Below, one piece after another: positions 18,221 to 29,050 of a stretch of 51,939 nt of DNA (position 1 is the stretch's first letter; each line of letters opens with the position of its first letter). The DNA comes from an uncultured Faecalibacterium sp. (GTDB taxonomy: Bacteria; Bacillota; Clostridia; Oscillospirales; Ruminococcaceae). The notes below the pieces were generated by a model. That model did not search any database, was not told where the DNA came from, and saw nothing but the letters and a program-made list of their open reading frames with translations. The stretch covers positions 1 through 51,939 of the forward strand of contig CABQHF010000001.1 of the NCBI GenBank assembly GCA_902463905.1, given 5' to 3'. The translations under genes and the position numbers were made by a program.

Positions 18221-21200
18221 TTACTGCGGGTACACATTGCCCTGGGCATCGGTCATCGTGAGGACCCACTGGCCGCCAATCTTTGCAGTGTATACCTGCG
18301 TGTTCGGCGGCAGCTGGACCCACTGGTTCGTGGTGCGGTTAAAAGCATAGTTCTTGTAGTTGCTGTACAACTCCAGCTGCTGGCCATTGTAGCTGACATA
18401 GGCAACAAACTGCGGCTGGGCCTGCTGAGTCTGGGCAGCAGCGGCGTTGCCTGCGCTCTGCCAGACCTTGGGGGTAAAGTTCTTCTTGTACTTCTTGATC
18501 TGGCGCAGCAGACCATCGTAGAAGCGCTTCACATTCTTGCTGTCTTTTGCTTCCAGCGTCTCCACGCTCTTGAGCAAATCTGCAAGATCCTTGCCGCTGT
18601 AGGTCTGATCCAGCTCCCGTGCGATCAGGACATCGGCTTCTTCCTTGCTGCGCTGGCGGAAGGACTCCACCTTTTCTTCCATCTCATGGCGGGGGTCCTC
18701 CTCCGGGTTCAGAGCACGGTAGTTTTCAAAGCCCTGATACAAAGGGTACTGCTCTGCAAAGACATATTTCTTGGGCTGCGCGGTATCGCTGAAGACTTCG
18801 ACCTGCACCATCTCCCGTTTATCCTTGTAGATATACTGGATCTTGGCGATCTTCTTGTTCTCGTCCGGGTCAAATACGCTGTGCTTGTTGGTATTGAGCA
18901 CCTCGAACACGTTGCTGAACAGGCCATCACAATAAGAGCTCAGGTCTGCCTCATAGTGGTTGTGCTCCGCTTCCAGCTCATCCAGACGTGCCAGAGCAGC
19001 CTTGACTGCCTGATACTTCCGGATTTCCTCTGCCACTTTGGCCTGCAGTGCCGGATAGTGCAGGAAGTAATCCTGGCGCACACGTTCCAGCACCTTGCTG
19101 TTGTTCAGTGCAGTATTGCCGTCGTTTTTCAGCTCGAAGTATTCAGCGCCCTCCGCCTTTTCATAGCGGTGTTCCAGCCAGTGGTGCAGGCGTTCCCGCT
19201 CTTCGCTCAGCTTCTTCTTGTTCAGGACCGAGCCCTCTGTCAGGAAGTCTTCCAGTTTGTACTCCGGGACCTCAATAGGCTTGCTCAGCTGCAGCTGATA
19301 GATCGTATTCGGATGCGTCTCGTTGGGTCCTTCCAGGAAGATAGCCCTACACTGCTCACCCTCTTCATAGAGCTTCAGCTGTGCCTCGGTGGTCTTTTTC
19401 TCAAAGAAATCCGGCTTGAAGGAATACGGCAGCGGTACCGGCAGATACGTGCGCCAGTTGACATCCAGATTGTCACTGGTCACGCGCTCCGTTTTTGCAT
19501 ACAGATGGCTGCCAGCACCTGCCGGCTGGTCAGCTGCTTCATCATAATACTTTTTCAGCAGAGTCACACCCTGATATGCGAACAGCGGTACACCACTGAC
19601 AAAGCGCAGGGCAAAAATGCGATCCTTCAGGCCGGTCTTACGCACAGCACAGCCATTGTTTGCAGTTTTTGCATATTGATCTGCAGCCGTACAGACAGCT
19701 GCTGCATTGGCCGGTACCGACAGCGAGCAGCTCTGGAAAGTGACCGTCGGGCTGTTGACATTATAGGTCTGGTCGCACCAGAACATGGGCGTTGCATCGT
19801 TATAGACCTTGGTAATGATTTCCTTCTGAATGATCTCGCCCAGCTTCTGCAGATTGCCATCTGCCTGCGGATATTTCAGGAACAGATAATCCTGCAGGCC
19901 CTTGCTGATCTCTGCATGGAACACCTGCTCCATGTATCTATTGATGAGCCGACCGATCTTGTTCTCATCGTTCTGGAGCCACTCATCCGGGCAGGCCAGG
20001 AATTCCTGCATAAAGTCGCATACCAGCTGCTTGGGGGTCAGGGCATCGATCACCTTGTCCAGGTTTTTCTTAACGTCCTCCAGCTCCAGGATGCGCCAGG
20101 TATATGCAGTCTGGCTCTTGGCTGCGCTGCTGTTCAGCCACACGATATTTTCCTTGAAAGTCGCATCCAGCTCGTCCATCACTGTGATCAACGGGGTAAA
20201 GAATTTCTTTTCCAGATCCGCCAGATCATCTGCAAACTTCCCTGCCATCTTTGCAGTTGCCCGCACCATATTCTGCTGGTTCTTGGCCAGATACCAGTCC
20301 TGCTCCAGCTGCTTGTAGTTCATATAGTGTTTGTTGATATTGAACACGTTTGCAGTTGCCAGCTCTGCGCTGGCCTGTGCCTTTGCCTCTGCCACCGAGT
20401 ACAGTCTGCGATCCAGGGACTCCGCCTCTTCCAGTGCCTGCGCACGGACGCCCAGTGCCCAGGCACGCAGATCGTCGGTCTCACTGTGCAGCAGCCGGGC
20501 TGCATAGTAGGGGCCATAGTTGGGATCCTGTGCCAGCATGCACAGCTCAATGAACACCTTGCCCAGCAGGGAGCCATCGCTGACCTTGGATACCTGGTTG
20601 CTCGTCAGTTCTCCGTTGAGTGCCTCACGGTTTTTGGTATACTTACCACTGCACTGGTCCAGCCAGGCATTGCCGTTCGTCCACCAGGGGTCCGGGGACT
20701 TATTAGCCGGCACCGGGCAGGTAGCCTTCATCACGTTCTTGTCCACATCCGGCAGATTGAGCGGTTCGCAACCTTCCATCATGCGGGCTTCCAGCGCTTC
20801 CGCCGTCAGGCCCCACTTGTTTGCCCAGGTCTTCACGTCATCCGGCGTGATGACCACGTTCTTGCGGCCGGCGCCATTCTCGAACCGGCGGTAGAAGCCT
20901 GCTGCCAGGTAGGTGGAGATCTGGGTCATGGGGATCTCGGCATTGGAAGCGCCCAGGATATGGTAGCTCAGGTTTGCACCGTATTCACGCTTCAGGCCCC
21001 TCACGCCTTGGGTCACGTTGGACAGGTGTCCCTTCATGGTCAGGCCCTGAGAATCAATCTTATCTCCCGCCAGATTGACCTTGGCCAGGTAAGCCATGAC
21101 ATAATCAGCCGACACATTGATGCAATAGCCAAAGCCGTTCGGGATCAGCGTCCCATCCGCCTTCTGGGCAGAGAGCAGATGACACATATCCACCGGCGGT

Positions 21201-28000: not shown

Positions 28001-29050
28001 AACCTGCTGCCAGGTAGGTGGAGATCTGGGTGAGGGGTACTTCCGCGCTGGCAATGCCCAGAATATGGTAGCTCAGGTTTGCACCATACTCACGCTTCAG
28101 GCCCTGCACACCACGGGTCACGACGGACAGGTGTTCCTGCATAGTCAGGACATGATCCCTGTTATCGATCCCGGCCAGACAGGTCAGGACATCATCGGCT
28201 GCCGCATTGACACAGTAGCCAAAGCCGTTCGGGATCAGTGTTCCATCCGCCTTCTGGGCGGAGAGCAGATGGCACACGTACACCGGCGGTTTCTGGGTCC
28301 GGATGGAAAAAGAGCCGTAATCCTGGCTGAACCAGTCCTGTGCATCCTGCAGATTCATCAGGTAATCCAGTTCCTTGAGGGCGGCATAACCGTTTTCGTT
28401 GTTATACTGCACCGCACCAATACTATAGGCCACTTCCGGCCTGCTGCACATAACATCCGGCAAAAAGAAGTAGCCCATGATGTTGTTCCTGCCTTCCAGA
28501 CCCAGATCCTTCAGCACCTCCCGGATGATATAGCAGGTATCAATGAAGCAGCCGCCGCCCGTTCCACCGGAAAGGCCCGCAAACACGTACACATCAATGG
28601 AAGGGTCTGTGCCCATCAGCGCAGTCGTGCACTTCTGCTCGATCCGGGTTTTGAGGGCAGCCGCCTTGCTCAGCAGCAGGAAACGGCCCACCTGACGCAC
28701 ACCGCCTGCGCCCTGGGGGCTGAGCCGCTGCGTGATTTTGTCGGCCTCCATCCAGCTCATCACCGGATTGTTGAGGATCGAGCTTTTGCCCTTCAGGATA
28801 GCCGGCAGCTCCGGCATGGAGATGGAGAAATACTCATCATCGGTCAGACGAGCCGCACCCTTGAGTCCGCTCACTGTGGTTTTTTCCGAATCGATGGCCA
28901 GGAACTGGATGTGCTGATAGTGGGGGATGGGGCTGTCCGGGTCGTCCGGCTCCAGCTGCCGGAACACCTTGCGCTTGAGTTGTGCCAGCGCCGCAATGCC
29001 GACGCCGCCGATGCCGATGCAGAGCGATGCCCTGCCGGACTGCTCCGATT
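18631..29050. repeat. Dispersed near-identical direct-repeat blocks among tubulin copies A, B and C
   Basis: By-eye matches: 18631-18997~25748-26114; 19141-19356~26252-26467; 19776-20210~22999-23433; 22833-23330~26715-27212; 24609-25147~28512-29050. Confidence 0.9.
22185..25205 (-). CDS. Tubulin/FtsZ-like GTPase-domain protein, copy B (about 1006 aa, lacks the C-terminal ~250 aa)
   Basis: CIGIGGVG, GAGGVRQVGR, GLSGGTGGG; AAGGAGG RBS before ATG 25205. Confidence 0.9.
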   Translation of the reverse strand: MIYDSLSLNNGGGIISTTQKSEQSGRASLCIGIGGVGIAALAQLKRKVFRQLEPDDPDSPIPHYQHIQFLAIDSEKTTVSGLKGAARLTDDEYFSISMPELPAILKGKSSILNNPVMSWMEADKITQRLSPQGAGGVRQVGRFLLLSKAAALKTRIEQKCTTALMGTDPSIDVYVFAGLSGGTGGGCFIDTCYIIREVLAELGLTHNSALSGFFFLPDVVTSKPEVAAMPASVAYNNSNGYAAMKELDYLMNLQDAQDWFCQNYGNFSIRTQEPPVDMCHLLSAQKATGAMIPNGFGYCINVSADYVMAYLAGGDMQNQLFHGIHGMWGLQRMYGANQCYHILGASNAEIPMTQISTYLAAGFYRRFEKGVGRKNVVITPDDVKTWANKWGLTAEALEARMMEGCEPLNLPDVDKNVMKATCPVPANKSPDPWWTNGNAWLDQCSGKYTKNREALNGELTSNQVSKVSDGSLLGKVFIELCMLAQDPNYGPYYAARLLHSETDDLRAWALGVRVQALEEAESLSRRLYSVAEAKAQASAELSTANAFNISRRYAVYKYLEESWYTAKNQQNMVLETAKMAGKLADDLADLGKKFFTPLITVMDELDATFKENIVWLNSSAAKSQTAYTWRILELEDVKKNLDKVIDALTPKQLVCDFMQEFLACPDEWLQNDENKIGRLINRYMEQVFHAEISKGLQDYLFLKYPQADGNLQKLGEIIQKEIITKVYNDATPMFWCDPKYAVTDPSVTFQSSSLSVPANAAAVCTAAKEYAHASPTGCVVRETGLKDRITAWRLISGVPLYAYQGATLLKKYYDEAADQPAGAGSHLYAKTDRLTGDNPNIDWRTYLPTPLPYSFEPDLFPKEATEAQLKLYEEGKQCGTILLEGPNKVHIDTIYRLQLSKPIEIPEYKLADFLAEGSVLNQKKLSEERNRLNYWLEHRYDRAEDAECIDLKNDGNTALHDPAVMERVRRDYFLHYPVLQAKVAEEVRKYQEVEAALERLDTLEAE

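Follow-up and report, generated by a model that had tools for sequence, protein, structure and literature searches.

The stretch of DNA analysed here (the window) is one entire contig of 51,939 nucleotides (nt), CABQHF010000001.1, from the metagenome-assembled genome (MAG) GCA_902463905.1 of an uncultured Faecalibacterium sp., a genome of 2.24 Mb in 357 contigs that is 78% complete and 5.5% contaminated. On its minus strand lie four tandem genes, called A to D here, which encode tubulin-like proteins of the Tubulin_2/FtsZl1 (FtsZ-like 1) family. Three of them, A, B and C, are patchworks of one another in which the closest partner of a gene changes from tract to tract, and the patchwork most probably arose by ordinary homologous gene conversion among tandem paralogs that are all predicted to be expressed. 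D was used as an outgroup and as an unshuffled control.

A tandem array of tubulin-like genes

The four genes are arranged as follows.

18221..22021, minus strand: gene A, long-form Tubulin_2/FtsZl1 paralog, 1266 amino acids (aa) from the ATG at 22021 (PF13809, E 6.8e-55)
22185..25205, minus strand: gene B, short-form paralog, 1006 aa (PF13809, E 8.2e-51)
25347..29108, minus strand: gene C, long-form paralog, 1253 aa (PF13809, E 1.2e-49)
29127..32771, minus strand: gene D, divergent fourth paralog, 1214 aa, ~51-55% aa identity to A, B and C

All four match the Pfam family PF13809 (Tubulin_2) at 170-187 bits, against a gathering cut-off of 27, and they are the only Tubulin_2 genes in the genome. 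The open reading frame (ORF) of A has an alternative opening, a TTG at 22027. B terminates in ...LDTLEAE without the ~250-aa C-terminal module that is found in A and C; three other assemblies also carry a gene of this short length, and short forms (~1000-1035 aa) from two clades stop at most 4 residues from a common helix end. Whereas B is a recurrent short form, A, C and D are full length, and each of the four copies has a ribosome-binding site and an ATG of its own, with AGGAGG placed ~8 nt 5' of the ATG in each of A, B and C.

Two glycine-rich nucleotide-binding loops, IGIGG(T/V)G and SGGTG(S/G)G, are kept in all four copies of the alignment; I take them to be loops T1 and T4, a labelling in line with PMC2875224. 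An AlphaFold2 model of B (m8f3f70d12842, with 64 homologues) had a predicted local distance difference test score (pLDDT) of 88.7 and a predicted template modelling score (pTM) of 0.79, and its first ~350 residues gave CetZ, FtsZ and tubulin as top Foldseek matches (E 4e-6 to 1e-4 over ~340 columns). Separately, ~330-370 columns of the model could be aligned by Foldseek with complete chains of FtsZ, CetZ and tubulin. Beyond residue ~350, the model consists of long helices and alpha/beta parts. Where Makarova and Koonin (2010; PMC2875224) discuss FtsZl1, its T6-H7 elements are described as not identifiable from sequence; the model of B may contain them. The original prediction had called a diversifying array unexpected for a cytoskeletal fold. 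The tubulin/FtsZ fold stood up, but the surprise is weakened because the proteins belong, as FtsZl1/Tubulin_2 members, to an operon predicted to serve conflict or membrane remodelling and not to a housekeeping cytoskeleton.

Genes A, B and C are mosaics of one another

When the codons of A, B and C are aligned, two copies agree against the third as B=C at 229 sites, A=B at 184 and A=C at 147, and all three differ at 18. Along the gene, these patterns switch only 143 times among 560 sites, compared with 367±11 times (minimum 316) in 10000 shuffles, and the longest run of a single pattern is 108 sites long, compared with at most 17 in any of the 10000 shuffles. The patchwork that had been proposed from reading the sequence is therefore borne out statistically, and the six block pairs that it was built on all proved to be 100% identical at the nucleotide level over 62-539 nt, with the third copy only 64-93% identical across them. 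These blocks, together with two tracts shared by all three copies and two variable patches, are given below; positions joined by ~ belong to the two copies named.

24609-25147~28512-29050, minus strand: exact B=C tract, 539/539 nt (A 80% identical)
19776-20210~22999-23433, minus strand: exact A=B tract, 435/435 nt (C 92.9% identical)
22833-23330~26715-27212, minus strand: exact B=C tract, 498/498 nt (A 92% identical)
19497-19558~22720-22781, minus strand: exact A=B tract, 62/62 nt
19141-19356~26252-26467, minus strand: exact A=C tract, 216/216 nt (B 80% identical)
18631-18997~25748-26114, minus strand: exact A=C tract, 367/367 nt, mostly the C-terminal module missing from B
A 20443..20770, B 23666-23993, C 27548-27875, minus strand: three-way identical tract, 328 nt, ~B residues 405-514, helical
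A 19776..20107, B 22999-23330, C 26881-27212, minus strand: three-way identical tract, 332 nt, ~B residues 626-736
A 20957..21089, B 24180-24276, C 28062-28179, minus strand: hypervariable patch with indels in the tubulin-like domain, all three copies different
A 19445..19573, B 22668-22796, C 26556-26678, minus strand: two-allele cassette, one allele with a 2-aa deletion (...YYDETIE--FR...)

The contrast between tracts is as strong in synonymous divergence (dS), which spans 0 to more than 1 along the gene for one and the same pair. For B and C, it runs through 0.03, 0.70, 0, 0.91, 0, 0.07, 1.31 and 0.56 in successive large segments, with 0.028 at alignment nt 39-648, 0.70 at 690-972, 0 at 1293-1620 and 1.31 at 2502-2634, so that near-identical blocks do alternate with divergent patches as had been described. 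The segment around the 539-nt B=C tract has 118 of its 128 informative sites in favour of B=C. The 328-nt three-way tract has no differences in 109 codons among A, B and C at a dS of 0.84 to D, and the 332-nt tract none in 110 codons at a dS of 0.58 to D.

Adding D as a fourth sequence gave 55 parsimony-informative sites for AB|CD, 50 for AC|BD and 67 for BC|AD, which switch 45 times along the alignment (shuffle mean 114, minimum 87). The three topologies are sorted into blocks: BC|AD leads by 31 sites to 4 and 0 for the other topologies at alignment nt 39-648, AC|BD by 25 to 1 and 2 at 2634-2943, and AB|CD by 12 to 0 and 1 at 1812-1956. No single tree fits the array, since the quartet topologies are split and blocked by segment. 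Segmentation by dynamic programming yielded 14 segments and 13 junctions. At 11 of these, the last informative site of one segment lies at most 8 nt from the first of the next, and the other two fall on long three-way identical tracts. Every junction is in frame, as the original prediction had remarked; this follows trivially, because exchange between aligned homologous genes keeps the frame.

Variability is distributed unevenly over the protein. Among eight close sequences, it peaks at B residues 61-140, 201-240, 301-340, 541-620 and 741-960, and it is lowest at residues 341-540. The first of these peaks lies between the first glycine loop and the SGGTG loop, a region for which the account of the family in PMC2875224 describes family-specific inserts. 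The hypervariable patch (alignment nt 972-1107) forms a helix-loop that carries indels and is modelled with lower confidence (pLDDT 76-77 for B residues 311-330), and pairwise ratios of non-synonymous to synonymous divergence (dN/dS) reach 0.78-3.2 there on 33-40 codons. Over whole genes dN/dS is 0.33-0.44.

The mosaic differs between strains

Other assemblies were then used for comparison at the protein level. The window represents strain 1; strain 2 is made up of P0002, P0039, P0037, P0015 and P0026, each with a longest contig of 34,792 bases, which I infer to be one locus. Its array genes are called A2, B2 and C2 here. Identity between the strains was as follows.

D: 99.2% identity, 10/1214 differences
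Flanking 627-aa protein: 99.4% identity, 4/627 differences
A: 94.2% identity, 74/1266 differences
B: 86.6% identity, 134/1003 differences
C: 86.1% identity, 174/1250 differences

The extra differences in A, B and C are clustered, with up to 28 within 46 columns, and D shows no tract of 3 or more. Differing positions at which both states occur in other paralogs of the respective genomes number 39 in A, 39 in B, 65 in C and 0 in D. A looser count, requiring either state in a paralog, was dropped as non-discriminating, since it scores 6 of 10 even for the unshuffled D.

The search for alternative mosaics in other strains was successful, and three stretches illustrate it. At columns 685-715, A, B and C are the same in strain 1, while A2 and C2 share a different allele (12 differences) and B2 has the strain-1 allele; the A2/C2 allele resembles D and the orthologue Z of a related species, which points to strain 1 as the one in which A and C took over a B-type tract. 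At columns 1060-1090, A equals C and A2 equals C2, yet there are 8 differences from strain to strain, so that at the protein level paralogs are closer than orthologues in those tracts. At columns 820-872, there are two old alleles: the one with the 2-aa deletion sits in the long C of strain 1 and in the short B2 of strain 2, and the other in A and B of strain 1 and in A2 and C2 of strain 2. The cassette thus occupies different genes in the two strains. The deletion allele is also present in the short gene P0040 and absent from the short gene P0004. Its linkage to gene type is safe within each assembly because no long B=C repeat separates this tract from the short or long 3' end.

The N-terminal B=C identity of 540 bp is confined to the lineage of the window. 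In strain 2, B2 equals P0004 there, and the best match of C2 in this stretch is no better than 72-90%. A search among shorter proteins returned 49 matches, only two of them at least 69% identical to C, which is too few for extra mosaics.

A locus from a related species served as an outgroup between species. A scan of Joint Genome Institute (JGI) metagenomes found this single locus (L095, a contig of 28,577 bases), of which positions 349-13114 are collinear with window 22131-9390 at 76% nt identity. It covers the A-position gene and five downstream genes, at 61-84% aa identity to the window, and provides no array: 465 nt of the contig precede the A-position gene, as though its assembly had broken within a tubulin array of its own. 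The A-position gene is 70.7% identical in aa between species, against 61-84% for the five downstream genes. It is therefore not faster between species, which argues that the excess within the species comes from reassortment and not from a high rate of point mutation.

Origin of the mosaic

Gene conversion among the paralogs of one genome is the explanation that I consider most probable by a wide measure, and it would work as follows. A, B and C would be three tandem paralogs that have interacted recently and D an older fourth, each encoding a protein in which a predicted N-terminal GTPase domain of tubulin/FtsZ fold is followed by a long C-terminal part made of helices and alpha/beta elements. 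As direct repeats that are spaced 3-4 kb apart and highly identical in places, the copies would be substrates for general homologous recombination, presumably of RecA type, by which segments of tens to ~600 nt would be copied repeatedly between paralogs, with occasional reciprocal exchange. Some tracts would thereby become identical in two or three copies, others would retain old divergent alleles (dS 0.5-1), and different strains would end up with different combinations of alleles. General recombination appears to be the most economical mechanism, given that no dedicated enzymes and no silent donors were found, that all copies have one orientation and that the mismatch spectrum is ordinary (see below). 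The proposal of segmental gene conversion or recombinational shuffling, which came from reading the sequence alone, is upheld by the blockwise switching, the range of dS, the mosaics of other strains and the relabelling test described below. The mosaic, its statistical significance, its persistence under relabelling and the tract-wise differences between strains are observed; conversion of RecA type, its direction and any selective value, be it diversification of surface patches or homogenisation of a core for co-assembly, are presumed.

Several points weigh against this reading. The strain comparisons are at the protein level only and cover three to five assemblies, with the sharing of contigs inferred. 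All evidence is from metagenome assemblies, the genome of the window itself being a MAG in 357 contigs, and any merging of near-identical paths by the assembler could make the tracts look slightly more identical than they are. Such merging could also fake a difference shared by B and C at column 49, where both have R and their counterparts P0005 and P0007 in a second assembly both have Q. Eight manure-metagenome runs from two studies contain just 9-13% of the sampled words of the window. As regards selection, dN/dS is 0.1-0.6 in most of the divergent segments, and there is no statistical sign of positive selection beyond short patches. Finally, many strain-2 tracts match no available paralog better than 72-90%, so exchange with alleles of other strains must contribute too.

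This last point bears on the strongest alternative, that exchange with divergent alleles of other strains after DNA uptake, and not copying within the genome, is the main source of the patchwork. The poorly matched tracts comprise many 40-aa windows of B2 and C2, and the divergent alleles, at a dS of 0.5-1, are far older than the split of the strains. The distribution of the locus is patchy and would fit a mobile accessory locus: a close homologue (E up to 1e-30) was found in 0 of 24 other species of the genus, and homologues at 28-38% identity in 4 of 400 sampled other genomes of the order. However, imported alleles alone are insufficient for exact tracts of 216-539 nt between paralogs of the same genome or for tracts in which A equals C and A2 equals C2 but the strains differ, and D and the flanking genes are without imported tracts. 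As the main source, import is therefore unlikely in my judgement. As an addition to conversion it is very likely, and the import of alleles and the copying between paralogs are compatible and not mutually exclusive.

An assembly artefact, in which blocks of three tree-like paralogs were swapped or homogenised at long shared repeats, was considered because the MAG is fragmented and incomplete and the exact repeats of 328-539 nt are longer than usual k-mer sizes. Reads gave no confirmation of the contig: those of four manure runs over 22000-25400 assembled into short contigs from relatives, mostly 90-99% alike, and spanned no junction. A backward joint of 3165 in these read contigs was rejected as a signal; it reflects the A-like gene of a relative, the start of which matches B best since the stretch stops at 22000. 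An assembler changing lanes would do so inside long shared runs, so the 10 exact pairwise runs of at least 60 nt had their labels swapped in every possible combination (1024). The best relabelling leaves 142 switches and raises the best share of a single partition only from 0.41 to 0.47. Relabelling thus fails to produce the mosaic, and at 11 of the 13 junctions the stretch of identity between the copies is no longer than 8 nt. Besides, the counterparts of B and C in the second assembly (P0005 and P0007) each differ by a single residue, and other assemblies have equal gene lengths and comparable mosaics. An artefact is very unlikely on this evidence. The array is nonetheless difficult to assemble, with whole A, B and C recovered in far fewer assemblies (clusters of 2-3 members) than D and the flanking genes (8-12), and a practical warning is that such arrays break or blur in short-read assemblies.

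Programmed diversification, by silent-cassette antigenic variation, a site-specific shufflon or a diversity-generating retroelement (DGR), is about as improbable. The outcome does resemble a reassortment of cassettes and the strains do differ, and the operon class is presented in parts of PMC7159879 as diversifying conflict systems, some of them associated with DGRs. The machinery, though, was not found. There are no silent, truncated or partial donor copies in the array, because all four genes have a ribosome-binding site and a start codon; a Pfam scan of 43 ORFs of the window gave no recombinase, invertase, transposase or reverse transcriptase; and inversion cannot act on copies that all have the same orientation. 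The mismatch spectrum is ordinary, with 52-54% of mismatches involving adenine, 57-61% being transitions and third codon positions dominating, which is unlike mutagenesis by a DGR. Of the cassette-like diversification array that had been suggested, the strain-specific mosaics remain and the dedicated machinery does not. Lastly, recent duplicates with divergent patches made in place by fast, locally selected point mutation would account for the few short patches at dN/dS 0.8-3.2, but this is contradicted by patches of dS 0.5-1.3 adjoining tracts of dS 0, by an odd copy that varies from patch to patch and by quartet sites with D that favour three topologies, and I regard it as next to impossible.

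Operon context and comparison with known systems

The array sits in what is predicted to be a DO-GTPase/vWA operon of a biological-conflict type, the other genes of which are listed below.

33524..35635, minus strand: vWA-domain protein upstream of the array (PF13519, E 1.2e-10)
32914-33474, minus strand: small repeat protein encoded between the vWA gene and D; 63-bp repeat at 32932-33312, 6.1 copies with 96% matches
16237..18120, minus strand: 627-aa protein directly downstream of A, without family match, used as flanking control for strain divergence
11977-13779 and 13776-15575, minus strand: two adjacent DO-GTPase2 genes downstream of the array (PF19993, E 1.6e-14 and 1e-10)

Further genes on the minus strand encode proteins of 206 and 942 aa without family match and a zinc-ribbon protein. 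PADLOC-DB 2.0 assigned no family to 10 operon proteins (E up to 0.001), and NCBIfam none to 10 of 12 proteins, with matches below the cut-off only for the vWA protein and the product of 6409-7779. Judged by its occurrence in sequenced genomes, the locus is an accessory, patchily distributed system, and since the 24 species and 400 genomes hold distant homologues at most, there are no sister arrays for comparison. The window contig may also have been mis-binned into the MAG, in view of its 5.5% contamination.

Two described operon types come close. One is the FtsZl1/Tubulin_2 type of Makarova and Koonin (2010; PMC2875224), with which the locus shares PF13809 matches, the tubulin/FtsZ/CetZ fold, a helical C-terminal region and vWA and GTPase genes in the operon. 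It differs in having four tandem copies, three of them mosaic; tandem near-identical paralogs or recombination are not part of what that paper's sections on FtsZl1 describe, and the word 'paralog' appears a single time in its text. The other is the firmicute 'tubulin theme' of the GAP1-N2 DO-GTPase conflict systems (Kaur, Burroughs, Iyer and Aravind, 2020; PMC7159879), which according to the description of these systems there normally have two tubulin genes, one or two DO-GTPase genes, a GAP1 protein with an N2-type N-terminal domain and two vWA proteins, of which one is fused to YtkA and the other has transmembrane helices. In the locus, a vWA gene and tubulin-domain genes whose C-termini are helical share one strand with a pair of neighbouring DO-GTPase genes. 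Unlike the systems of that description, it has four tubulin genes and not two, and Pfam searches revealed neither GAP1 nor YtkA nor a second vWA gene: the window has a single vWA gene and no YtkA match, and the 942-, 627- and 206-aa neighbours have no GAP1-type match (E up to 5; best unrelated sub-threshold E 0.086). Recombination among these genes is not described in the literature searched (open-access papers and bioRxiv preprints), and functional experiments on GAP1-N2-type systems were not found in open-access literature or preprints; what is known of FtsZl1/Tubulin_2 proteins and the surrounding DO-GTPase systems comes from comparative genomics alone.

Bacterial multigene families, such as the duplicated tuf genes, can evolve in concert by gene conversion. 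The array resembles them in its exact tracts between paralogs, its incongruent trees along the gene, its paralogs that are closer than orthologs in tracts, and its zero-dS tracts beside high-dS tracts in the same pair. In contrast to concerted evolution, it is homogenised only partly, and old alleles are reassorted among gene positions with a net diversity between strains. Silent-cassette antigenic variation, as in pilE/pilS and vlsE, likewise replaces segments in frame from homologous donors and yields strain-specific mosaics, but here there is no single expression site with promoterless partial donors, all copies are complete genes, and no dedicated cis element or enzyme was found. A DGR is set apart by its reverse transcriptase and by adenine-specific differences of template and variable repeat, neither of which is seen in the scanned ORFs or in the copies. 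The locus therefore adds an example to a known process, the gene conversion of tandem paralogs, in a family and operon type for which the literature searched does not describe it.

Possible recurrence in other lineages

In two of three further pairs of genes presumed to share a contig (compared in protein windows), long stretches of 100% identity lie beside divergent parts. P0056 and P0108 are identical over ~520 aa and 75-96% identical in the N-terminal domain, and the tandem copies of locus L022 (53-2594 and 2638-5602) are 96.5% identical over 2536 nt and then ~50% in aa. P0042 and P0045 have 40-97% identity per window and no identical window, and four other tandem pairs have 67-87% nt identity in their aligned parts. 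L018 was rejected as a paralog pair, as it consists of two overlapping frames. In a FastTree of 123 proteins, short and long forms are intermingled: the label changes 11 times, where shuffles change it 33 times on average. This fits recurrent exchange of long and short paralogs, although trees of mosaics are unreliable. Taken together, these comparisons suggest that this branch of the family has seen recurrent exchange between its paralogs. Across the wider family, near-identical arrays are exceptional, since most of 78 loci from named genomes have only one copy that matches A (E 1e-20 or better, ORFs of at least 500 aa). As a separate observation, the long and short tubulin-like paralogs of other lineages (P0056/P0108 and L022) have ~520-680 aa at 100% beside divergent ends.

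A more far-reaching reading combines several claims, and as a joint claim it is tentative and more likely to be wrong than right. Frequent conversion among expressed long and short paralogs would reassort a few old allelic cassettes, located in the insert region of the tubulin-like domain and in C-terminal loops, so that near-clonal strains would show phages or their inhibitors different polymer surfaces; two central helical segments would be kept identical for the paralogs to co-assemble; and the recombination would be selected for and general in this DO-GTPase/tubulin branch, a generality at which the two pairs with identical stretches and the intermingled tree hint. If true, this would be combinatorial diversification of a cytoskeleton-like immune component in bacteria. 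Whatever the selective value of the shuffling, the locus separates parts that are free to vary between near-identical strains from parts that are identical in all paralogs. It thus offers an experimental map, with the variable patches as candidate contact surfaces and the identical core segments as candidate assembly surfaces, and it would illustrate how a system may diversify through general recombination only.

Transcription signals and minor features

Three non-coding elements of the array were annotated.

22028..22184, minus strand: B-A intergenic region with an AGGAGG ribosome-binding site
25206..25346, minus strand: C-B intergenic region with an AGGAGG ribosome-binding site and one promoter-like match (25297-25268)
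32862..32896, minus strand: terminator-like hairpin just upstream of D, 15-pair stem and T run

Promoter-like matches in the array are no more frequent than in shuffles. The terminator-like hairpin before D suggests that the array is a separate transcription unit which begins there. Right after the stop codon of A, at 18100-18220 on the minus strand, there is a GC-rich inverted repeat, CCCCAGGGGC...GCCTCTGGGG, with a T run ahead of the next gene. The terminator scan did not report this element, which may attenuate or terminate transcription as it passes from the array to the 627-aa gene.

The real genes are on the minus strand, and each gene of the operon (window 13776-35752) has an antisense mirror, a plus-strand ORF of nearly its own length, for example 17981-22042 over gene A. 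The mirrors arise because TTA, CTA and TCA codons are nearly absent (0 of 1268 in gene A, 0 of 703 in the vWA gene and 1-6 in four other genes), so that the codon-aligned antisense frame is nearly free of stops.

The product of the small repeat gene at 32914-33474 has a short N-terminal part followed by 21-aa units rich in Pro, Ala, Gly and Met. It had no match in Pfam or NCBIfam, and a relationship to the C-terminus of A was rejected (best E 3.2). Tandem repeats are also found in a YkuD L,D-transpeptidase gene at 6406-7779 on the minus strand, where they occupy 6518-6722 with periods of 39 (4.9 copies, 91% matches) and 21.

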